A stretch of 64,000 nucleotides of DNA from Escherichia coli (GTDB lineage: Bacteria; Pseudomonadota; Gammaproteobacteria; Enterobacterales; Enterobacteriaceae): the NCBI RefSeq assembly GCF_016026235.1, contig NZ_CP065613.1; one strand, given 5' to 3'. Both the position numbers and the translations under genes were made by a program. A model generated the notes under the pieces. The model saw only the letters and a list, made by a program, of their open reading frames with translations. It did not search any database and had not been told where the DNA came from. Positions 12,508 to 57,064 of the stretch are shown here, piece after piece (position 1 is the stretch's first letter; each line of letters opens with the position of its first letter).

Positions 12508-13254
12508 TCAGAATTTGTAGGTGATCCCGGTAGAAATCAGGCCAGTCCAGGATTTATCCACCATCGGGCTGTCAGTAACTTCATCAGACTGACGGGTATA
12601 GCGCGCGGTACCGTAAACACTCCAGTCGCCGAGGAAGTTGTAGCTGGCGCTCAGCTCCAGGTAAGGGCTCCAGCTGTCGTTCGGGTTATAGCCACGCAGA
12701 CCGCTGCGAGCGGACTCTTTGCGCGATACGCCATAATAGTATTCGTTCTGGTTTTCGCTGTTCCACTGCACACCGATACCCGGGGTCACGGTCAGGCCGC
12801 CGTTGGTGTAACGATACAACCAGGCCATATCCCAGACGATGCCGTTGCTGTTATCCAGGGTATCGCCAGCCAGGGTGGTACGCAGGTAACCGTACTGGGT
12901 AAAGTGAGCATAAGACAGACCAGCCATCATGGTGCTCTTACGGTCATCCAGGTGACGCATTTGGTGATCGCCACTGTCTTTCGCTTTGAAGTAAAGCGGC
13001 GACCAATAAGCGGTAATTGAAAGTTTGTCCGTTGCGTCATTCCACAGGTAGTAACCACCACCTAAGCCACGGAACCAGAAGTTATCGCCTTCATAGTTGA
13101 TTACCGGTACTGGGTAAACATCGGTATCGTAATCTTTATATGGGTGTTCAACGACACCTACGCCTGCGCCCAGGGAAAATTTACCTTCAGCGTGCGCTAC
13201 GCCTGCAGACGTTGCGATAAGCACTCCAAGTGCCAGAAGTTTGAGTTTGGTCAC
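12508..13254 (-). CDS. mipA: MltA-interacting outer-membrane protein
   Basis: 248-aa ORF with signal peptide, ends in aromatic residue (beta-barrel type). Confidence 0.9.
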   Translation of the reverse strand: MTKLKLLALGVLIATSAGVAHAEGKFSLGAGVGVVEHPYKDYDTDVYPVPVINYEGDNFWFRGLGGGYYLWNDATDKLSITAYWSPLYFKAKDSGDHQMRHLDDRKSTMMAGLSYAHFTQYGYLRTTLAGDTLDNSNGIVWDMAWLYRYTNGGLTVTPGIGVQWNSENQNEYYYGVSRKESARSGLRGYNPNDSWSPYLELSASYNFLGDWSVYGTARYTRQSDEVTDSPMVDKSWTGLISTGITYKF

Positions 13255-13689
13255 AATTAATCATTCCTTAAACAAATGTTTAGCGGGCGACAAAGTTTAC
13301 CCGTCAATACATCGAAACCCAACCTTTTTACGTTTTCATTTTTTAAAGTAACTGTTTAATTTTCCTGACGCGGATGACACCGCGCTTACAGCCAAATGAA
13401 TTTAGCGTTACTGGCGAGCCTTGTCTTTACATTAATTATGCAAAATTTATGGATGAGTTGTTGATATGCCATTGAAATTAAGAAAGCCGTGCAGGCAAGT
13501 TTTCCATTTGCCATCTACGCTTAATTTTGAAGGTGTATCACCGGGCACGTTGTTCTCATCGTCGATAAAATGGCATGAGAGTTGCTGTGTTTTAGCAAGA
13601 GACGTCGTTCAGTTTACCTCTTCCGGGAGCCTCTACTATTCATATGAACGGCTCTTAACCTGTGCTAAAAAACGAAAGGACGGCATACC

Positions 13690-15624
13690 ATGAATATATT
13701 CGATCACTATCGCCAGCGATATGAAGCTGCCAAGGACGAAGAGTTCACACTGCAGGAGTTTCTTACCACTTGTCGGCAAGATCGCAGTGCTTATGCCAAC
13801 GCGGCTGAGCGGCTATTGATGGCTATCGGTGAGCCTGTCATGGTCGATACAGCCCAGGAACCCAGACTTTCTCGACTCTTTTCTAACCGGGTCATTGCAC
13901 GTTATCCGGCATTTGAAGAGTTTTACGGCATGGAAGACGCGATTGAACAGATTGTCTCTTATCTGAAACACGCGGCTCAGGGGCTGGAAGAGAAGAAACA
14001 AATCCTGTATCTGCTGGGGCCTGTGGGTGGGGGTAAATCATCGCTTGCTGAGCGACTGAAATCATTAATGCAGCTCGTACCGATTTATGTATTGAGCGCC
14101 AACGGTGAGCGTAGCCCGGTCAACGATCATCCGTTCTGTCTTTTCAATCCGCAGGAAGATGCTCAGATTCTGGAAAAAGAGTATGGCATTCCTCGCCGTT
14201 ATCTCGGCACCATCATGTCGCCGTGGGCGGCAAAACGTCTGCATGAATTTGGTGGCGATATTACTAAGTTCCGGGTAGTGAAGGTCTGGCCGTCCATTCT
14301 GCAACAAATTGCTATCGCCAAAACAGAGCCCGGTGATGAGAACAACCAGGACATCTCCGCGCTGGTAGGGAAAGTCGATATTCGTAAACTCGAACACTAC
14401 GCGCAGAATGACCCAGACGCCTATGGCTATTCCGGCGCACTGTGCCGCGCCAACCAGGGGATCATGGAATTCGTTGAGATGTTTAAAGCACCGATTAAAG
14501 TGCTGCATCCCTTGTTAACCGCCACTCAGGAAGGTAACTACAACGGGACGGAAGGTATCTCCGCCCTGCCGTTCAACGGGATTATTCTCGCCCACTCGAA
14601 CGAGTCCGAATGGGTCACTTTCCGTAATAACAAAAACAACGAAGCCTTCCTCGATCGTGTTTACATCGTGAAGGTGCCGTATTGCTTGCGCATTTCCGAA
14701 GAGATCAAAATCTACGAGAAATTGCTTAATCACAGTGAATTGACTCACGCCCCATGCGCCCCTGGCACGCTCGAAACACTGTCACGTTTTTCCATTCTTT
14801 CGCGCCTGAAAGAGCCAGAAAACTCCAGCATTTATTCAAAGATGCGGGTTTATGATGGCGAAAGTCTGAAAGACACCGATCCCAAAGCCAAGTCGTATCA
14901 GGAATATCGTGACTACGCCGGTGTCGATGAAGGGATGAACGGTCTGTCGACGCGTTTTGCGTTTAAGATCCTCTCCCGCGTGTTCAACTTCGATCATGTA
15001 GAAGTGGCAGCAAACCCGGTCCATCTGTTCTACGTCCTAGAACAGCAGATCGAGCGCGAGCAGTTCCCACAAGAGCAGGCAGAACGCTATCTGGAGTTCC
15101 TGAAAGGTTATCTGATCCCGAAATATGCCGAGTTTATTGGCAAAGAGATCCAGACGGCCTACCTTGAATCCTATTCCGAATATGGGCAAAACATTTTCGA
15201 CCGTTATGTTACCTACGCGGATTTCTGGATTCAGGATCAGGAGTATCGCGATCCGGATACCGGGCAGCTGTTTGACCGCGAGTCTCTTAACGCCGAGCTG
15301 GAGAAAATCGAGAAACCGGCGGGGATCAGTAATCCAAAAGATTTCCGCAACGAGATTGTTAACTTCGTACTGCGCGCCAGAGCCAATAACAGCGGACGCA
15401 ATCCGAACTGGACCAGCTATGAAAAACTGCGCACGGTTATCGAGAAGAAAATGTTCTCCAATACCGAGGAGCTGTTGCCGGTTATCTCGTTTAACGCCAA
15501 AACGTCAACCGACGAGCAGAAGAAACACGACGACTTTGTCGACCGTATGATGGAAAAAGGCTACACCCGTAAACAGGTGCGTTTACTGTGCGAATGGTAT
15601 TTGCGCGTACGTAAATCGTCTTAA
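13690..15624 (+). CDS. yeaG: PrkA-family serine protein kinase
   Basis: 644-aa ORF with Walker A motif GPVGGGKSS. Confidence 0.9.
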   Translation: MNIFDHYRQRYEAAKDEEFTLQEFLTTCRQDRSAYANAAERLLMAIGEPVMVDTAQEPRLSRLFSNRVIARYPAFEEFYGMEDAIEQIVSYLKHAAQGLEEKKQILYLLGPVGGGKSSLAERLKSLMQLVPIYVLSANGERSPVNDHPFCLFNPQEDAQILEKEYGIPRRYLGTIMSPWAAKRLHEFGGDITKFRVVKVWPSILQQIAIAKTEPGDENNQDISALVGKVDIRKLEHYAQNDPDAYGYSGALCRANQGIMEFVEMFKAPIKVLHPLLTATQEGNYNGTEGISALPFNGIILAHSNESEWVTFRNNKNNEAFLDRVYIVKVPYCLRISEEIKIYEKLLNHSELTHAPCAPGTLETLSRFSILSRLKEPENSSIYSKMRVYDGESLKDTDPKAKSYQEYRDYAGVDEGMNGLSTRFAFKILSRVFNFDHVEVAANPVHLFYVLEQQIEREQFPQEQAERYLEFLKGYLIPKYAEFIGKEIQTAYLESYSEYGQNIFDRYVTYADFWIQDQEYRDPDTGQLFDRESLNAELEKIEKPAGISNPKDFRNEIVNFVLRARANNSGRNPNWTSYEKLRTVIEKKMFSNTEELLPVISFNAKTSTDEQKKHDDFVDRMMEKGYTRKQVRLLCEWYLRVRKSS

Positions 15625-15724: not shown

Positions 15725-17020
<1,296 letters not shown>

Positions 17021-17023
17021 AAC

Positions 17024-17060
17024 TATCAGCCGGGTCATTATCGCCTGGCTGATTTTTAGC
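17024..17060 (+). terminator. putative terminator after yeaH
   Basis: Hairpin ATCAGCCGG...CCTGGCTGAT followed by TTTTT. Confidence 0.5.
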
Positions 17061-17166
17061 TCACTGTAAATTATCTCATTTATTACATACATTAGCTTAC
17101 AATCGCTTTAAATATGACAGCATAACCTTTACACAATTTAGTTCCAGAAAACAATCATTCGGAAAA

Positions 17167-18642
17167 ATGATTCAGTCAACACGTATTTCCATGGGGTTAT
17201 TCTTTAAATATTTTTTATCGTTAACGAAAATTGATCCTGGTCAAAACTATATATCTCTGCCATCAATAAAATCCAGCACTCACATTGCTCTCCTTTTTAT
17301 GGTTTCTATGGGTACACAAAAATTAAAAGCTCAAAGCTTTTTTATTTTCAGTTTATTGCTGACGTTAATTTTATTTTGCATTACTACCTTATATAACGAA
17401 AACACAAATGTAAAACTCATCCCACAGATGAATTACCTGATGGTTGTTGTGGCTTTGTTTTTCCTTAACGCCGTCATTTTTCTTTTCATGTTAATGAAAT
17501 ATTTTACTAACAAACAAATTTTACCAACACTCATTTTAAGCCTTGCATTTTTAAGTGGCCTTATCTATTTAGTTGAAACCATTGTAATTATCCATAAACC
17601 AATTAACGGCAGTACACTGATCCAGACAAAGTCGAATGATGTTTCTATTTTCTATATTTTCCGCCAACTCAGTTTTATTTGTTTAACCTCGCTGGCGCTC
17701 TTTTGTTATGGAAAAGACAACATCCTTGACAACAATAAGAAAAAAACTGGCATTCTGTTGCTGGCGCTGATTCCTTTTTTAGTTTTTCCCCTTCTGGCAC
17801 ACAATCTGAGCAGTTATAACGCTGACTATTCTTTGTATGTCGTCGATTACTGTCCGGACAACCATACTGCGACCTGGGGAATCAACTATACAAAAATATT
17901 GGTTTGTCTGTGGGCATTTTTACTGTTCTTTATTATCATGCGTACACGATTAGCCAGCGAACTATGGCCGTTAATAGCATTATTATGTCTGGCATCGCTA
18001 TGCTGCAACTTACTTCTACTGACTCTGGATGAGTATAATTATACCATCTGGTATATCAGTCGCGGGATTGAAGTCTCCAGTAAACTGTTTGTTGTGTCTT
18101 TTCTGATTTATAACATTTTTCAGGAGCTGCAACTCTCCAGCAAACTGGCAGTTCATGATGTGCTGACCAATATTTATAATCGGCGCTACTTTTTCAACAG
18201 CGTAGAGTCATTATTGTCGCGACCTGTTGTTAAGGACTTCTGTGTCATGCTGGTTGATATTAATCAGTTCAAGCGCATCAATGCCCAATGGGGACATCGT
18301 GTGGGTGATAAAGTGCTGGTTTCAATTGTCGATATTATCCAGCAAAGCATCCGCCCCGATGATATTTTAGCGCGACTGGAGGGTGAGGTGTTTGGCTTGC
18401 TATTTACCGAACTCAATAGTGCCCAGGCAAAAATCATTGCGGAACGTATGCGTAAAAATGTCGAACTCCTGACCGGCTTTAGTAACAGATATGATGTTCC
18501 TGAACAAATGACCATCAGTATTGGCACGGTTTTTTCAACGGGTGACACGCGTAATATCTCGCTTGTCATGACGGAAGCAGATAAAGCCTTACGCGAAGCG
18601 AAAAGCGATGGGGGCAACAAAGTGATTATTCATCATATTTAA
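17167..18642 (+). CDS. yeaI: membrane-anchored degenerate GGDEF-domain protein
   Basis: 491-aa ORF; AT-rich N-terminal multi-TM domain and C-terminal GGDEF-like domain (motif reads EGEVF). Confidence 0.85.
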   Translation: MIQSTRISMGLFFKYFLSLTKIDPGQNYISLPSIKSSTHIALLFMVSMGTQKLKAQSFFIFSLLLTLILFCITTLYNENTNVKLIPQMNYLMVVVALFFLNAVIFLFMLMKYFTNKQILPTLILSLAFLSGLIYLVETIVIIHKPINGSTLIQTKSNDVSIFYIFRQLSFICLTSLALFCYGKDNILDNNKKKTGILLLALIPFLVFPLLAHNLSSYNADYSLYVVDYCPDNHTATWGINYTKILVCLWAFLLFFIIMRTRLASELWPLIALLCLASLCCNLLLLTLDEYNYTIWYISRGIEVSSKLFVVSFLIYNIFQELQLSSKLAVHDVLTNIYNRRYFFNSVESLLSRPVVKDFCVMLVDINQFKRINAQWGHRVGDKVLVSIVDIIQQSIRPDDILARLEGEVFGLLFTELNSAQAKIIAERMRKNVELLTGFSNRYDVPEQMTISIGTVFSTGDTRNISLVMTEADKALREAKSDGGNKVIIHHI

Positions 18643-18822
18643 GTGCAAAAATATTCAGAGCCATGCTTTTTGCGTGGCTTTTGCATACAATTTATTACTA
18701 TTACCCCTAAATTTCCCCTCCCCAGCGGCGCAGAGATGAGTATAATTAGCGCCCCTGTGCCAGGCCGCAATCGAACTTTATCTGGTTTTCTCGTTTCACT
18801 AACCGAAGGAGTGCCATTTATC

Positions 18823-20313
18823 ATGAAATTGCACCATAGAATGCTCCGGCATTTTATCGCCGCAAGTGTCATTGTGCTGACATCTTCCTTCCTTATTTTT
18901 GAACTTGTCGCCAGCGACAGAGCAATGAGTGCCTATCTGCGCTATATCGTGCAGAAAGCAGACTCCTCCTTTCTTTATGATAAGTATCAGAATCAGAGTA
19001 TTGCCGCGCATGTGATGCGCGCTCTCGCTGCTGAGCAGTCGGAAGTGTCGCCAGAACAGCGGCGCGCCATCTGCGAGGCTTTTGAGTCTGCCAATAATAC
19101 CCATGGCTTAAACCTGACTGCCCATAAATACCCGGGCTTACGCGGCACACTACAAACCGCATCCACTGACTGCGACACAATTGTGGAAGCTGCAGCACTA
19201 TTACCCGCTTTTGATCAGGCAGTGGAAGGCAACCGCCACCAGGATGATTACGGTTCAGGTCTTGGGATGGCCGAAGAGAAATTTCACTATTATCTCGATC
19301 TCAATGACCGCTATGTCTATTTTTATGAGCCGGTTAATGTTGAATACTTTGCGATGAATAACTGGTCCTTCCTGCAGTCAGGAAGTATTGGCATCGATCG
19401 CAAAGATATTGAAAAGGTATTTACCGGGCGTACCGTATTGTCGAGCATTTACCAGGATCAGCGTACTAAACAGAACGTGATGAGTTTGCTGACGCCGGTG
19501 TATGTTGCAGGGCAGCTAAAAGGGATTGTGCTGCTGGATATTAACAAAAACAATCTGCGGAATATCTTTTACACTCATGACCGCCCTCTCCTCTGGCGTT
19601 TTCTCAATGTCACGCTAACCGATACAGATTCGGGGCGCGACATTATCATCAACCAGAGCGAAGATAATCTGTTCCAGTATGTCAGTTACGTCCATGACTT
19701 ACCGGGCGGCATTCGTGTCTCGTTATCCATTGATATTCTTTACTTTATCACGTCTTCGTGGAAAAGCGTTCTGTTCTGGATTTTGACGGCGTTAATTTTG
19801 CTGAATATGGTGCGGATGCACTTCCGCTTATACCAAAATGTGTCGCGAGAAAATATTAGTGATGCGATGACTGGACTGTATAATCGCAAAATTTTAACCC
19901 CTGAACTGGAGCAGCGGTTGCAGAAACTGGTGCAATCCGGTTCTTCGGTGATGTTTATTGCAATTGACATGGACAAGTTAAAGCTAATAAATGACACCCT
20001 CGGTCATCAGGAAGGGGATTTAGCGATTACGTTGTTAGCTCAGGCGATTAAACAATCGATTCGTAAAAGTGATTATGCCATCCGACTCGGTGGCGATGAA
20101 TTCTGCATCATTCTTGTCGATTCGACGCCGCAAATTGCAGCACAACTGCCTGAACGTATCGAAAAACGTCTGCAACATATCGCGCCGCAGAAAGAGATCG
20201 GCTTCTCTTCCGGTATTTACGCGATGAAAGAAAACGATACGTTACATGATGCGTATAAAGCTTCCGATGAGCGTTTATATGTCAATAAGCAGAACAAAAA
20301 CAGCCGTTCATGA
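18823..20313 (+). CDS. dgcJ: diguanylate cyclase DgcJ
   Basis: Start placed at MKLHHRM (496 aa) with AGGAG upstream; C-terminal GGDEF domain (RLGGDEF). Confidence 0.85.
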   Translation: MKLHHRMLRHFIAASVIVLTSSFLIFELVASDRAMSAYLRYIVQKADSSFLYDKYQNQSIAAHVMRALAAEQSEVSPEQRRAICEAFESANNTHGLNLTAHKYPGLRGTLQTASTDCDTIVEAAALLPAFDQAVEGNRHQDDYGSGLGMAEEKFHYYLDLNDRYVYFYEPVNVEYFAMNNWSFLQSGSIGIDRKDIEKVFTGRTVLSSIYQDQRTKQNVMSLLTPVYVAGQLKGIVLLDINKNNLRNIFYTHDRPLLWRFLNVTLTDTDSGRDIIINQSEDNLFQYVSYVHDLPGGIRVSLSIDILYFITSSWKSVLFWILTALILLNMVRMHFRLYQNVSRENISDAMTGLYNRKILTPELEQRLQKLVQSGSSVMFIAIDMDKLKLINDTLGHQEGDLAITLLAQAIKQSIRKSDYAIRLGGDEFCIILVDSTPQIAAQLPERIEKRLQHIAPQKEIGFSSGIYAMKENDTLHDAYKASDERLYVNKQNKNSRS

Positions 20314-22454: not shown

Positions 22455-23636
22455 ATGACCTGTTCAACTTCATTAAGCGGCAAAAACAGGATTGTCCTTA
22501 TCGCTGGCATTCTGATGATTGCCACAACATTACGCGTCACCTTTACCGGCGCAGCGCCGTTACTGGATACGATTCGTTCCGCTTACTCGCTGACGACAGC
22601 GCAAACCGGCTTATTAACCACCCTGCCATTATTGGCCTTTGCGCTAATCTCACCTTTGGCTGCCCCGGTGGCGCGACGTTTTGGTATGGAACGTAGCCTG
22701 TTTGCCGCGTTACTTTTGATCTGTGCAGGTATCGCAATTCGTTCTCTCCCTTCGCCTTACTTATTATTTGGCGGTACAGCGGTCATTGGCGGTGGGATTG
22801 CATTAGGCAATGTCTTACTGCCAGGATTAATTAAACGCGATTTCCCTCATTCCGTCGCCAGACTTACCGGCGCATATTCCCTGACAATGGGAGCTGCAGC
22901 GGCACTGGGATCGGCTATGGTCGTGCCGCTGGCTTTGAACGGTTTTGGCTGGCAAGGCGCGTTGTTCATGCTGATGTGTTTTCCTCTGCTGTCTCTTTTT
23001 TTATGGCTGCCACAGTGGCGAAGCCAACAACATGCAAATTTGAGTACCTCGCGCGCCTTACATACTCGGGGTATCTGGCGTTCGCCGCTTGCCTGGCAGG
23101 TCACATTGTTTCTTGGGATCAACTCACTGGTCTATTACGTGATTATTGGCTGGCTTCCGGCGATCCTCATCAGTCACGGCTATAGCGAAGCACAGGCGGG
23201 TTCACTGCATGGTTTGCTGCAACTAGCCACAGCAGCTCCCGGTTTGCTGATCCCTCTTTTCTTACATCATGTGAAAGATCAGCGTGGTATTGCAGCGTTC
23301 GTTGCCTTGATGTGCGCAGTGGGCGCTGTTGGGCTCTGCTTTATGCCAGCGCACGCGATCACCTGGACTCTGCTTTTCGGTTTTGGTTCCGGCGCAACAA
23401 TGATACTGGGGTTGACGTTCATTGGTCTTCGGGCAAGTTCTGCGCATCAGGCGGCGGCACTCTCGGGGATGGCACAATCCGTCGGGTATTTGCTGGCAGC
23501 CTGTGGGCCGCCGCTGATGGGTAAAATACACGATGCTAACGGTGACTGGTCCGTACCACTGATGGGTGTTGCAATACTTTCACTACTGATGGCGATTTTC
23601 GGACTTTGCGCCGGGAGAGACAAAGAAATTCGCTAA
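22455..23636 (+). CDS. nimT: MFS efflux transporter NimT
   Basis: 393-aa polytopic ORF. Confidence 0.85.
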   Translation: MTCSTSLSGKNRIVLIAGILMIATTLRVTFTGAAPLLDTIRSAYSLTTAQTGLLTTLPLLAFALISPLAAPVARRFGMERSLFAALLLICAGIAIRSLPSPYLLFGGTAVIGGGIALGNVLLPGLIKRDFPHSVARLTGAYSLTMGAAAALGSAMVVPLALNGFGWQGALFMLMCFPLLSLFLWLPQWRSQQHANLSTSRALHTRGIWRSPLAWQVTLFLGINSLVYYVIIGWLPAILISHGYSEAQAGSLHGLLQLATAAPGLLIPLFLHHVKDQRGIAAFVALMCAVGAVGLCFMPAHAITWTLLFGFGSGATMILGLTFIGLRASSAHQAAALSGMAQSVGYLLAACGPPLMGKIHDANGDWSVPLMGVAILSLLMAIFGLCAGRDKEIR

Positions 23637-40373: not shown

Positions 40374-40718
40374 ATGACTATCGTTCGTATCGATGCTGAA
40401 GCCCGCTGGTCTGATGTAGTAATCCACAACAACACGCTCTACTACACTGGTGTACCGGAAAACCTCGACGCCGATGCCTTTGAGCAAACCGCCAACACGC
40501 TGGCACAGATTGACGCCGTGCTGGAAAAACAGGGCAGCAATAAATCGAGCATTCTGGATGCCACCATTTTCCTGGCCGATAAAAACGACTTCGCGGCGAT
40601 GAATAAAGCGTGGGATGCCTGGGTTGTCGCGGGTCATGCGCCGGTGCGCTGCACGGTACAAGCGGGTTTGATGAACCCGAAGTATAAAGTTGAAATTAAG
40701 ATTGTGGCTGCGGTGTAA
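40374..40718 (+). CDS. yoaB: RidA/YjgF-family protein YoaB
   Basis: Start placed at MTIVRIDAEARW (114 aa). Confidence 0.85.
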   Translation: MTIVRIDAEARWSDVVIHNNTLYYTGVPENLDADAFEQTANTLAQIDAVLEKQGSNKSSILDATIFLADKNDFAAMNKAWDAWVVAGHAPVRCTVQAGLMNPKYKVEIKIVAAV

Positions 40719-41113
40719 GCTTTATCGAAGCAAAATAAGTCAGACGATAATTTATCGATAATACTGGTCGGTTTTACATAAATCGACCAGAGAATAAGAT
40801 ATTACTGTTGATGCTTCTGCTAATTCATTATTTATATTTATAATTTCAATTTTATCTATAAAACTAACTATATAAATAAACATAAACATGCCGTTGTGTT
40901 CGCCCTTTGATTAGCAACTCTGGTTTTCTTTCTTAGCTGAACAATCTGGTTATAGCGTGCGGACTGACCGTTAATTTTCTCCATCTTACTGGATAACACA
41001 CCATGAACTGCTACTTTTAAAACACCTGAATGTCAACAGGTTAACTCGTGCCATATCGGGTGATGCTGCCAACTTACTGATTTAGTGTATGATGGTGTTT
41101 TTGAGGTGCTCCA

Positions 41114-56396: not shown

Positions 56397-57064
56397 AAAC
56401 AGAACTGTACCTCGTTTAACCCGAAATCTGTTATCACATACAACGTTAATTATGGCAAGCCATTTTTAAACATGTCTCGATCAGACGCACAAATCTCGAT
56501 ACGTCTTCCACTTTTTTTGCACACTTATGCAACGGAATACGCGCTGATATATCATTGTGCTTAACCTTGCCAGTTCAGGCAGATACTTAAACTGGCGTAT
56601 TTTCTAACATAGTTCAATAAGTTCAGTTGTTCCAGGCCAGTGGGAGAAGTTATTACATAGTGCGTGCAATATCACATTTTTTGCTATGCAATGAATAAAA
56701 AGTTATATCACTTTTTCTCATAAAACAGTCAGTTAACGGCTATCAATTACCCTAAAGAGAAGTCAATCCCCAAAGGGATTGAAAATTTAAAATAAGAAAA
56801 ATTGATGAATGAGCAAAAAATCAAGAAAGAAACGTTTCGCTAATAAATAATACCACGCTTAATCACAAATCCGATGTAAACATCCTAATAAATTAATGAG
56901 GAAAATATCTTTTTCTGATATCCCGTTACGCAAATAAATAATATGATAATTATTTGAAGTCAGACCAGAGTTTTAATTTGAAGCAGTTGCACCATGGCAG
57001 TGCGTATAATCAGGATGAATTGAGTAACCCTTCAACGACGGGGTTACTCAAGATTGAGGAAGGA

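Follow-up and report, generated by a model that had tools for sequence, protein, structure and literature searches.

What accounts for the strongly AT-rich composition of the 5′ half of yeaI (cdgI), and does this composition betray a foreign origin of the gene? The question arises from a window of 64,000 nucleotides of Escherichia coli DNA (the whole stretch that was analysed), in which an earlier note, made from the sequence alone, had singled out positions 17167-18100. The reading favored here, to which we assign a probability of roughly three in four, is that the AT-rich tract consists of the cdgI regulatory region together with the MASE4 coding half of the gene and derives from an ancient acquisition of low-GC DNA that is now fixed, with FNR and AppY as putative counter-silencers of H-NS.

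The gene and its product

The gene is yeaI, as the earlier note had named it; this is evident from the matches of the product to the MASE4 and GGDEF domains and from the RefSeq annotation of E. coli cdgI. In the annotated protein, MASE4 (Pfam PF17158) spans aa 88-319 (E = 1.4e-48, profile positions 5-237 of 239), that is, nucleotides 17428-18123, and GGDEF (PF00990) spans aa 328-485 (E = 1.2e-44). The gene lies between yeaH and dgcJ (yeaJ), as in K-12, in agreement with the note, which had placed it at its K-12 position. Its two coding parts are as follows.

17308..18123, + strand: MASE4 membrane-sensor coding part of cdgI (Pfam MASE4), GC 0.354, GC3 0.41
18148..18639, + strand: GGDEF domain of cdgI (A-site degenerate, EGEVF; I-site intact, RPDD), GC 0.443

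In the YeaI alignment, the motif RPDD...RLEGEVFG combines the intact RxxD I-site with the degenerate A-site, and the same combination, along with c-di-GMP binding, has been reported for CdgI (PMC5635695). The active site of the GGDEF domain is degenerate and variable across the Escherichia lineages, whereas the Citrobacter orthologs retain GGEEF. When over-expressed, the GGDEF domain of CdgI is toxic, and there is no CdgI expression under standard laboratory conditions (PMC5635695). The MASE4-GGDEF architecture is shared with DgcT (YcdT) and DgcX of E. coli (PMC5635695, PMC10459773).

Composition and extent of the AT-rich tract

The GC content of 17167-18100 is 0.353, compared with 0.491 for the whole window, and only 0.69% of all 934-bp segments (mean 0.491, sd 0.038) are as low. 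The minimum for segments of this size, 0.336, is reached by the one beginning at 17052, and the lowest 300-bp value in the region, 0.287, is found at 17307. The tract begins upstream of 17167, inside the yeaH-yeaI spacer, with the 300-bp segments of GC 0.36 or less starting at positions 16911 to 17520. In the 3′ direction, GC rises stepwise from 0.318 (17308-17700) to 0.388 (17701-18123) and then to 0.443 in the GGDEF part. In GC (0.383), GC1 (0.417) and GC3 (0.425) alike, yeaI ranks last among the 49 ORFs of the window that encode 150 aa or more; when the gene is taken from the ATG at 17308 and compared with the other 48 ORFs, the z-scores are -3.8 for GC and -1.9 for GC3, and those of the MASE4 part are -5.0 and -2.4, respectively. 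In 17167-18100, 12 homopolymers of A or T are 5 nt or longer and 15 stretches of 8 nt or more consist of A/T only, counts that are equalled by ~1% of the same-size tiles of the window and exceed those in composition-matched shuffles (P = 0.006 for the homopolymers and P = 0.03 for the A/T-only runs). The sliding-window GC check proposed in the earlier note, run here within the window, thus finds the tract to be real, with GC below that of its neighbors and with the long A/T runs that the note described.

The annotated N-terminus and the start codon

The 5′ part of the tract falls in a portion of the annotated gene that is probably not translated. Three features delimit it.

17021..17307, strand not assigned: probable true yeaH-yeaI intergenic/regulatory region, 287 bp, GC 0.331
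17167..17307, + strand: first 47 codons of the annotated 491-aa YeaI/CdgI, probably untranslated
17308..17310, + strand: conserved start codon ATG (M48 of the annotated protein), invariant in 11 loci

Comparison of the orthologous sequences suggests that the first 141 nt of the annotated gene are probably promoter and 5′ leader and that the true start is the ATG at 17308. The variable sites in 17167-17307 are distributed over the three codon positions as 11:10:12 (p = 0.91), with no coding signature, and the segment carries 1-nt indels in two of the loci (L004 and L005). The frame is closed 13-29 codons 5′ of the conserved ATG in E. albertii, in L005 and in the Citrobacter-type loci. Outside E. 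coli and the clades closest to it, no locus matches the start at 17167. In every intact ortholog, the ATG at 17308 yields a product of 444-445 aa, the orthologs in databases are 445-448 aa long, and those of Citrobacter have a spacer of 290-296 bp ahead of the same conserved ATG. Nearly all E. coli genomes carry 17167-17307 with an identity of 95% or more. In strain ECZP248, two 1-nt deletions in T-runs break the long frame, and PGAP calls a 447-aa CdgI; this case is given little weight because the assembly also contains a frameshifted dgcJ, so that homopolymer sequencing errors are possible. The earlier note had taken the whole of 17167-18100 for the membrane-domain half of the gene, which holds from 17308 onwards but probably not for the first 141 nt. 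Constructs, reporter fusions and structure models that are based on the 491-aa annotation would be affected by the correction of the start codon.

A conserved FNR box and a predicted promoter

The spacer contains three elements that are conserved among the orthologous loci.

17025..17053, + strand: terminator-like hairpin and T-run just 3′ of the yeaH stop, probable yeaGH terminator (11-bp stem with 6 G-C pairs, TTTTT)
17231..17244, strand not assigned: FNR box TTGATCCTGGTCAA, matching 9/10 positions of TTGAT-N4-ATCAA
17267..17272, + strand: candidate -10 hexamer TAAAAT (TAGAAT in other species), conserved in 11/11 loci

The arms of the terminator stem (TCAGCC.GG and CC.GGCTGA) are kept in all loci that cover this stretch, including those of Citrobacter, and the loop varies. 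The half-sites of the FNR box are invariant in 11 orthologous loci, with a variable 4-nt spacer, and the Citrobacter-type loci carry a perfect TTGAT-N4-ATCAA. The pattern occurs once in each of the 13 loci that contain yeaI and in none of the five loci that do not. The center of the box is separated from the TAAAAT/TAGAAT hexamer by 29.5 nt, which fits the class II spacing with the box centered at -41.5, and from this geometry the transcription start is predicted to lie near 17279. A scan of 16500-19000 against Rfam (E <= 1) detected no RNA family.

Published data place FNR at this site. Myers et al. 2013 detected an FNR ChIP-seq peak at 1868480 and tabulated exactly the same site as ‘Within yeaI' (PMC3688515, supplement), an intragenic label that results from the long ORF call. 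FNR occupancy was higher in the hns stpA double mutant (2.55, up from 1.57), and their upstream sigma70 peak is located near 17087, ~190 bp from the predicted start (PMC3688515). In being near-consensus and in showing higher occupancy without hns and stpA, the yeaI site resembles the class II FNR promoters that are masked by H-NS, such as that of hlyE; it differs from them in that its transcription start is a predicted one and in that no FNR-dependent expression change is given for yeaI (PMC3688515).

With the start codon corrected, the ‘intragenic' FNR site would become part of a conserved promoter, which yields a testable hypothesis on when the silent CdgI is expressed. In its full form, the hypothesis states that the 491-aa CdgI is 47 residues too long, that the FNR site forms the core of a class II promoter that Citrobacter and Escherichia share, and that CdgI is a c-di-GMP effector induced by anaerobiosis, under the control of FNR along with AppY further downstream, and masked by H-NS in laboratory culture. 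We consider the chances of this composite proposal to be evenly balanced; if true, it would answer which conditions drive CdgI expression.

H-NS binding and possible selection for AT-richness

The tract overlaps a published regulatory feature.

17292..17595, strand not assigned: promoter island 1868534_304 yeaI(+) of MG1655 (PMC3661553, Table 1; coordinates converted)

The conversion (window position = U00096.2 position - 1,851,242) is anchored on the FNR site, and the converted interval falls on the GC minimum. Shavkunov, Ozoline and co-workers list the island among 78 in E. coli K-12, with H-NS bound in all cited ChIP studies (‘A'), and yeaI is predicted to be foreign by GIST, by Nakamura 2004 and by Lawrence & Ochman 1998 (PMC3661553). 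In another compilation, yeaI is listed as bound by H-NS (TRUE) and as a transferred gene of class ‘L/N', and the binding is conserved among E. coli strains (PMC4720273). An AppY peak has been reported in cdgI, with a log2 fold change of 5.1 (PMC10057817). The tract has thus already been described as an H-NS-bound promoter island with a predicted transferred gene, and the present analysis adds nothing new on anciently acquired core genes. Like other promoter islands, it is AT-rich and bound by H-NS, with a gene that is predicted to be horizontally acquired; unlike them, it consists mostly of the coding sequence of a conserved membrane domain, and the promoter elements with the strongest conservation (FNR box, -10 hexamer) are located just upstream of the listed island. 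A scan of 9 kb for strict sigma70 -35/-10 consensus sites found 11 where 13.4 would be expected, and these did not cluster in the tract; the islands were originally defined by an unusually high density of promoter-like sites as scored with PlatProm.

These observations raise the possibility that AT-richness is kept by selection, either to preserve an H-NS platform or promoter island by which a toxic gene is silenced or to slow translation during membrane insertion. The conserved H-NS binding and the toxicity of the GGDEF domain fit this explanation, as does the low GC shared by the Escherichia and Citrobacter orthologs even though synonymous sites between E. coli and Citrobacter are saturated (no estimate of dS was obtained for yeaI or yeaJ). 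The same compositional profile in dgcT also points in this direction. However, the tract contains no specific, conserved H-NS motif: the high-affinity motif TCGATAAATT, with at most one mismatch, occurs nine times in the window (six expected) and not once inside the tract or in yeaI. Moreover, yeaI shows a net gain of GC (see below) rather than stasis. As the sole cause, maintenance by selection appears unlikely, but it can coexist with an old acquisition, by slowing amelioration, and would modify that reading more than compete with it.

Amino acid composition and codon choice

The low GC could also be a mere by-product of a hydrophobic MASE4 domain rich in F, I, L, N, K and Y in a native, vertically inherited gene. 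The amino acids F/Y/M/I/N/K make up 0.379 of the MASE4 part, compared with a mean of 0.246 in the other ORFs, and amino acids alone predict a GC of 0.41, which corresponds to ~63% of the GC deficit of this part (GC2 equals the amino acid expectation by construction). The other ~37% is due to AT-biased synonymous codons: GC3 is 0.41 vs ~0.55 expected for the same amino acids under local codon usage, and TTA accounts for 34% of the Leu codons vs 14% elsewhere. A MASE4 paralog at an unrelated locus, in a context of 54-57% GC, serves as a control: its N-terminal GC is also lowered, to 0.44, but its GC3 is a normal 0.56, with a synonymous share of 3%. The other membrane proteins of the window have normal or high GC (for example, 0.53 for the MFS gene at 22455-23636), and the adjoining 287 bp of non-coding DNA is as AT-rich as the coding part. 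Together with the direction of substitution in yeaI and its patchy distribution, considered below, these results make membrane-domain bias alone an improbable explanation.

They support a contribution of both membrane-domain bias and AT-biased codon choice. The earlier note had treated the pattern as an old acquisition or a membrane-domain codon bias and not as a recent island; of these, the first two both appear to contribute and the recent island is excluded, with the codon-usage check that the note suggested, carried out within the window, yielding the GC3 deficit and the TTA excess given above.

Direction of substitution and selection on yeaI

Among the changes in yeaI that could be polarized within Escherichia, 63 are AT->GC and 36 GC->AT (p = 0.009), whereas the flanks are balanced (Fisher test for the difference between yeaI and the flanks, p = 0.017). 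This test involved 8 sequences, parsimony polarization and 99 changes. The implied equilibrium GC3 of yeaI, 0.56, equals that of the flanks. The excess of AT->GC changes in yeaI next to balanced flanks points to an old acquisition of low GC that is still ameliorating. A deficit that is protein-driven in its larger part (~60%) and historical or synonymous in the rest (~40%), in a gene whose GC is still rising, makes the locus a clean illustration of how a fixed gene ameliorates slowly.

The same data bear on the notion that yeaI is a decaying, functionless gene, with relaxed selection and AT-biased mutation pressure, which we regard as very improbable. The silence of CdgI in the laboratory and its degenerate, variable active site would be compatible with decay, as would the fast evolution of YeaI between genera (57-62% identity, compared with 94-99% for YeaG and YeaH) and the occasional IS insertions or deletions. 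Nevertheless, yeaI is under purifying selection. The variable sites in the MASE4 part fall into the three codon positions as 37:13:109 (p = 3.5e-21), the published dN and dS of 0.0012 and 0.044 give a dN/dS of ~0.03 within E. coli (PMC4720273), and the ORF from the conserved ATG stays open over its 444-445 aa throughout Escherichia and in two of three tested Citrobacter-type loci. In addition, the net substitution is toward GC, not AT, the I-site is kept and c-di-GMP binding has been reported (PMC5635695). Decay is largely refuted by this evidence.

Distribution and synteny

The region is present in 5424 of the 5426 complete E. coli genomes, with a coverage of 80% or more in 5411, and its identity across these genomes is 95-100%. 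E. albertii, Citrobacter sp. Awk 4, Citrobacter sp. NCU1 and one further contig share the gene order yeaG-yeaH-yeaI-yeaJ-yeaK, one more, short contig retains yeaI-yeaJ, and yeaI is found between yeaH and yeaJ in the cryptic Escherichia clades as well. In C. freundii and in two further contigs from enterobacteria, yeaH is not followed by yeaI, which is replaced or absent there. Across the loci surveyed, from E. coli, E. albertii, the cryptic Escherichia clades, Citrobacter and a few other enterobacterial contigs, yeaI is thus patchily distributed at a conserved junction. The E. albertii and Citrobacter loci were found by a protein search followed by contig look-ups; a whole-protein contig scan that required exact peptide-pattern matches returned only five near-identical Escherichia loci and missed both groups, so that its silence on other genera does not amount to absence. 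No matches named Salmonella or Klebsiella are in the list of YeaH homologs. All detectable relatives are enterobacterial, and the search revealed no donor lineage.

A recent horizontally acquired island or strain-specific insertion, as suggested by the atypical composition and by composition-based methods that call yeaI foreign (PMC3661553), is scarcely credible and is refuted by the distribution: the presence/absence check proposed in the earlier note finds the gene in nearly all E. coli genomes and, at an unchanged position, in further Escherichia species and part of Citrobacter, and there is no integrase, IS element or tRNA gene in the ORF list of the window and no direct repeat flanking yeaI. 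A search around yeaI for repeats that could be insertion scars yielded short two-copy matches only, none of them flanking the gene. One 14-nt exact repeat was seen in this search.

The origin of the tract

Taken together, the synonymous bias, the direction of substitution and the patchy distribution lead us to infer a foreign origin of yeaI, the ancient acquisition proposed at the outset. The first part of the tract, ~17021-17307, comprises the probable yeaGH terminator, the conserved FNR box and the conserved -10 hexamer, with its last 141 bp likely untranslated, and the second part, 17308-18123, is the coding sequence of the MASE4 membrane sensor. Under this scenario, the synonymous bias and part of the amino acid bias would be what remains of an ancient acquisition from a lower-GC background, or of a history in one. 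The gene would have entered the yeaH-yeaJ junction before the divergence of Escherichia and part of Citrobacter, and would then have been fixed in E. coli, under purifying selection and with a slow drift up toward the GC of the host. The AT-rich tract would serve as an H-NS platform that silences cdgI in laboratory conditions, as suggested by the published ChIP data, and the likely condition-specific activators would be FNR and, further downstream, AppY, in a putative role of counter-silencers.

The scenario has precedents. The net AT->GC drift of yeaI toward the composition of its neighbors is as in the amelioration model of Lawrence & Ochman. Like the ancient H-NS-bound transferred core genes of Higashi et al. 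2016 (PMC4720273), yeaI is near-universal in E. coli and less conserved outside the genus; the difference is that its Citrobacter orthologs share the low GC. The orthologs are equally AT-rich (0.354-0.357 in the N-terminal part, with a GC3 of 0.44 vs 0.56-0.68 in the neighbors), so that any transfer either predates the split of Escherichia and Citrobacter or involved exchange among enterics.

Besides the enterobacterial nature of all detectable relatives and the small basis of the substitution test, three observations weigh against acquisition. At the synonymous level alone, yeaI is only ~2 sd below the mean of the window. In Citrobacter, the orthologs match the E. coli gene in AT-richness despite saturated synonymous sites, which implies either slow amelioration or partly maintained AT-richness. 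Finally, the similarity of dgcT to cdgI, with a GC of 0.351 in the N-terminal part and 0.441 in the C-terminal part and a GC3 of 0.39, is compatible with a family-specific constraint; dgcT itself is located in a low-GC region that adjoins an IS element and a tRNA gene.

Base composition of the yeaI locus

Over this E. coli chromosomal stretch, the window is 99.1% identical to K-12, and the locus runs yeaG, yeaH, yeaI/cdgI, yeaJ/dgcJ, yeaK, yoaI, yeaL, with the following coordinates:

13690-15624, yeaG
15737-17020, yeaH
17167-18642, yeaI/cdgI as annotated
18823-20313, dgcJ/yeaJ

The yeaI product combines a MASE4 membrane domain (amino acids 88-319, E = 1.4e-48) with a GGDEF domain (amino acids 328-485, E = 1.2e-44). 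The earlier note described the 5' half of the gene (17167-18100) as AT-rich with long A/T runs, and both features are real: the GC content of this interval is 0.353 vs 0.491 for the window, a value as low is reached in just 0.69% of the 934-bp windows sliding along the whole stretch, and A/T homopolymers of at least 5 nt (12) and A/T-only runs of at least 8 nt (15) are over-represented, such counts being matched by ~1% of window tiles. The low-GC tract begins upstream of this interval, in the yeaH-yeaI spacer; the absolute minimum among 934-bp windows (0.336) starts at 17052, the 300-bp minimum of the tract (0.287) lies at 17307, and GC recovers gradually along yeaI, from 0.318 (17308-17700) through 0.388 (17701-18123) to 0.443 in the GGDEF part. 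The proposed check of sliding-window GC and codon usage marks yeaI as atypical within the window: it ranks lowest for GC, GC1 and GC3 among the 49 ORFs of at least 150 aa, with z-scores relative to the other window ORFs of -3.8 (GC) and -1.9 (GC3) when counted from the ATG at 17308, and of -5.0 and -2.4, respectively, for the MASE4 part. The GC of yeaJ is likewise under average (0.459).

The expected GC was calculated with the synonymous codon choice for each amino acid set to that of the other 48 ORFs. For the MASE4 part, this gives 0.411 vs 0.354 observed, so that 63% of its deficit relative to the pooled coding GC (0.508) comes from amino-acid composition and 37% from synonymous choice. In this part, F/Y/M/I/N/K account for 0.379 of the residues (other ORFs: mean 0.246, maximum 0.355) and G/A/R/P for 0.114 (mean 0.264 in other ORFs); among its Leu codons, TTA makes up 34% vs 14% elsewhere, and CTG 30% vs 47%. 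The other membrane proteins of the window have normal GC. A 40%-identical paralog with the same MASE4-GGDEF architecture, encoded elsewhere (L010, between fabI and sap), has an N-terminal GC of 0.442, a normal GC3 (0.56) and a synonymous share of 3%. The MASE4 domain alone therefore depresses GC by about 0.06, the remainder of the yeaI deficit being specific to this lineage. The other MASE4 gene of K-12, dgcT, has a yeaI-like profile (0.351 and 0.441; GC3 0.39); it belongs to the pga region, which is low in GC, and has an IS3 element and a tRNA gene next to it.

Amelioration and distribution of yeaI

Substitutions within Escherichia were polarised by parsimony with E. albertii as the root, in a small sample of eight sequences. 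In yeaI, there are 63 AT->GC changes vs 36 GC->AT (binomial p = 0.0086; Fisher test against the flanks, p = 0.017), and the flanks are balanced (yeaG 25/31, yeaH 23/22, yeaJ 37/38). The changes imply an equilibrium GC3 of 0.56 for yeaI, the same as in the flanks (0.53-0.57). A low-GC gene whose composition is still ameliorating toward that of the host would be expected to behave in this way. The Citrobacter-type orthologs are equally AT-rich (N-terminal GC 0.354-0.357, GC3 0.44; neighbour genes 0.56-0.68), and because AT-richness thus persists on either side of the Escherichia-Citrobacter split, there is room for selection, for example preserving H-NS binding, that slows amelioration. The AT->GC excess fits neither a static composition nor decay under AT-biased mutation.

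The codon-position distribution of variable sites in the MASE4 part (37:13:109), together with the published within-E. coli dN of 0.0012 and dS of 0.044 (Higashi et al., PMC4720273), shows that yeaI is under purifying selection. Between E. coli and Citrobacter, protein identity is 57-62% for YeaI, 63-64% for YeaJ, 98-99% for YeaG and 94-95% for YeaH, with synonymous sites of yeaI and yeaJ saturated; yeaJ diverges between the genera as quickly as yeaI, its substitutions being compositionally balanced.

The yeaI region is present in 5424 of the 5426 complete E. coli genomes at 95-100% identity (5411 with coverage of at least 80%), and orthologs also come from cryptic Escherichia lineages (L001-L005). 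The yeaG-yeaH-yeaI-yeaJ-yeaK order is common to E. albertii (L015), Citrobacter sp. Awk 4 (L007), Citrobacter sp. NCU1 (L017) and a further compared locus, L011; a short contig (L016) retains yeaI-yeaJ after a truncated upstream ORF. The K-12 position claimed for the gene is borne out by the yeaH-yeaI-yeaJ order. In C. freundii (L012), an opposite-strand methyltransferase lies between yeaH and yeaJ, and two other enterobacterial loci (L013, L014) carry unrelated genes 3' of yeaH and lack both yeaI and yeaJ; therefore, the site 3' of yeaH is a variable junction among Enterobacteriaceae. Thus, yeaI is an old gene, fixed in Escherichia and patchy outside the genus; no donor lineage was identified. 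Neither the window ORFs nor the repeat search revealed an integrase, an IS element, a tRNA gene or flanking repeats at yeaI, and with the near-universal presence in E. coli and synteny in relatives, a recent island is excluded.

The earlier reading, an old acquisition or membrane-domain bias, is accordingly supported by the split deficit, amelioration and near-universality, and it matches a view already published. The gene was predicted foreign by GIST, Nakamura 2004 and Lawrence & Ochman 1998 (as cited in PMC3661553), and is H-NS bound and of class 'L/N' (predicted transferred) in PMC4720273. A 304-bp 'promoter island' at 1868534, H-NS-bound in all cited ChIP studies (PMC3661553), converts to 17292-17595, the GC minimum (window = U00096.2 - 1,851,242, anchored on the FNR site). 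The tract is real and unremarkable: it comprises the AT-rich regulatory and membrane-domain DNA, bound by H-NS, of a c-di-GMP effector gene that was acquired long ago and is now core.

The annotated N-terminus of YeaI and the FNR box

The sole new element is evidence that the annotated N-terminus of YeaI is likely promoter DNA. Database orthologs have 445-448 aa, vs 491 annotated; the ATG at 17308 (M48 of the annotation) is invariant in the alignment of 11 orthologous loci, and the product from this ATG has 444-445 aa in every intact ortholog. None of the coding signatures tested is present in the 47-codon extension (from 17167): the upstream start has a counterpart in E. coli and the nearest clades only (TTG in E. 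whittamii), the frame is closed 13-29 codons 5' of the conserved ATG in E. albertii, L005 (a cryptic lineage) and Citrobacter-type loci, 1-nt indels occur in L004 (also cryptic) and L005, and variable sites are even over codon positions (11:10:12, p = 0.91). With the start at 17308, the yeaH-yeaI spacer is 287 bp (290-296 bp in Citrobacter). In strain ECZP248, the extension carries two 1-nt T-run deletions, possibly homopolymer assembly errors, and CdgI is annotated with 447 aa.

Two conserved elements lie within the extension:

17231-17244, FNR box TTGATCCTGGTCAA, half-sites invariant in 11/11 loci, spacer variable
17267-17272, candidate -10 hexamer TAAAAT/TAGAAT, conserved, 29.5 nt from the FNR box centre

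The FNR pattern occurs exactly once per locus in all 13 yeaI-bearing loci, 77-81 nt 5' of the conserved ATG, matching the perfect consensus TTGAT-N4-ATCAA in Citrobacter-type loci, and is absent from all five loci without yeaI. The box-to-hexamer spacing fits class II FNR promoter geometry, with a predicted transcription start near 17279. The site was first recognized by conservation, and the matching published site was found afterwards: Myers et al. (PMC3688515) list this sequence (ChIP-seq peak 1868480, site 1868473, 'Within yeaI', PWM score 15.15), with an occupancy of 1.57 that increases to 2.55 in the mutant lacking both hns and stpA. Because the same study reports no FNR-dependent expression change for yeaI and its upstream anaerobic sigma70 peak converts to ~17087, not 17279, we only infer the promoter, which would re-label the published 'intragenic' site as a conserved promoter. 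RstA binds the yeaI promoter region by gel shift, and an SrsR gSELEX peak falls in the yeaH-yeaI spacer (~17124). A hairpin 3' of yeaH (17025-17053), kept from Citrobacter to Escherichia with a variable loop sequence, probably terminates yeaGH transcription.

An exact 14-nt direct repeat with a perfect TATAAT, GATGAGTATAATTA, occurs at 18028-18041, inside yeaI, where it encodes a conserved D-E-Y-N motif, and at 18735-18748, ~75 nt 5' of where dgcJ starts. The internal copy adjoins an anaerobic sigma70 peak 'within yeaI' (1869297, ~18055; signal 15.6 aerobic, 408 anaerobic; PMC3688515) and the AppY ChIP-seq summit (~18011; log2 fold change 5.1; PMC10057817), which suggests that a promoter active under anaerobic conditions lies inside the gene and drives transcription into the GGDEF part and dgcJ.

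Other observations

The GGDEF motif (18376-18390) is an intact GGEEF in Citrobacter-type orthologs and degenerate, differing per lineage, in Escherichia (EGEVF, EGEEF, DGEVF, EGDVF, EGNVF, EGKRF), where the RxxD I-site is kept; the protein probably lost its cyclase activity at the root of the genus, the motif drifting since. In the Citrobacter sp. NCU1 locus (L017 3924-4025), the reading frame of the conserved ATG stays open for 34 codons and the gene call (419 aa) starts at a later Met, which probably reflects a frameshift, a pseudogene or an error of assembly. The otherwise closest genome, FDAARGOS_943 (99.8%), has a transposase of the IS5 family in the yeaH-cdgI part of the match, with the cyclase gene annotated there in two parts. 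For K-12 derivatives, the literature describes a cdgI-dgcJ' deletion that arose spontaneously and an IS1 copy inserted in dgcJ.

Four further short low-GC spots, all in DNA carried by nearly all E. coli genomes, are 56424-56845 (near yobF), 53846-54112 (yobD 3' end; ORF 53606-54064), 40627-40827 (near yoaB) and 13200-13600 (mipA-yeaG spacer), with 300-bp minima of 0.280, 0.287, 0.317 and ~0.40, respectively. The sole perfect copy of the H-NS motif TCGATAAATT in the window lies at 40749-40758; two copies with 1 mismatch, at 13444 and 13562, fall in the mipA-yeaG spot.
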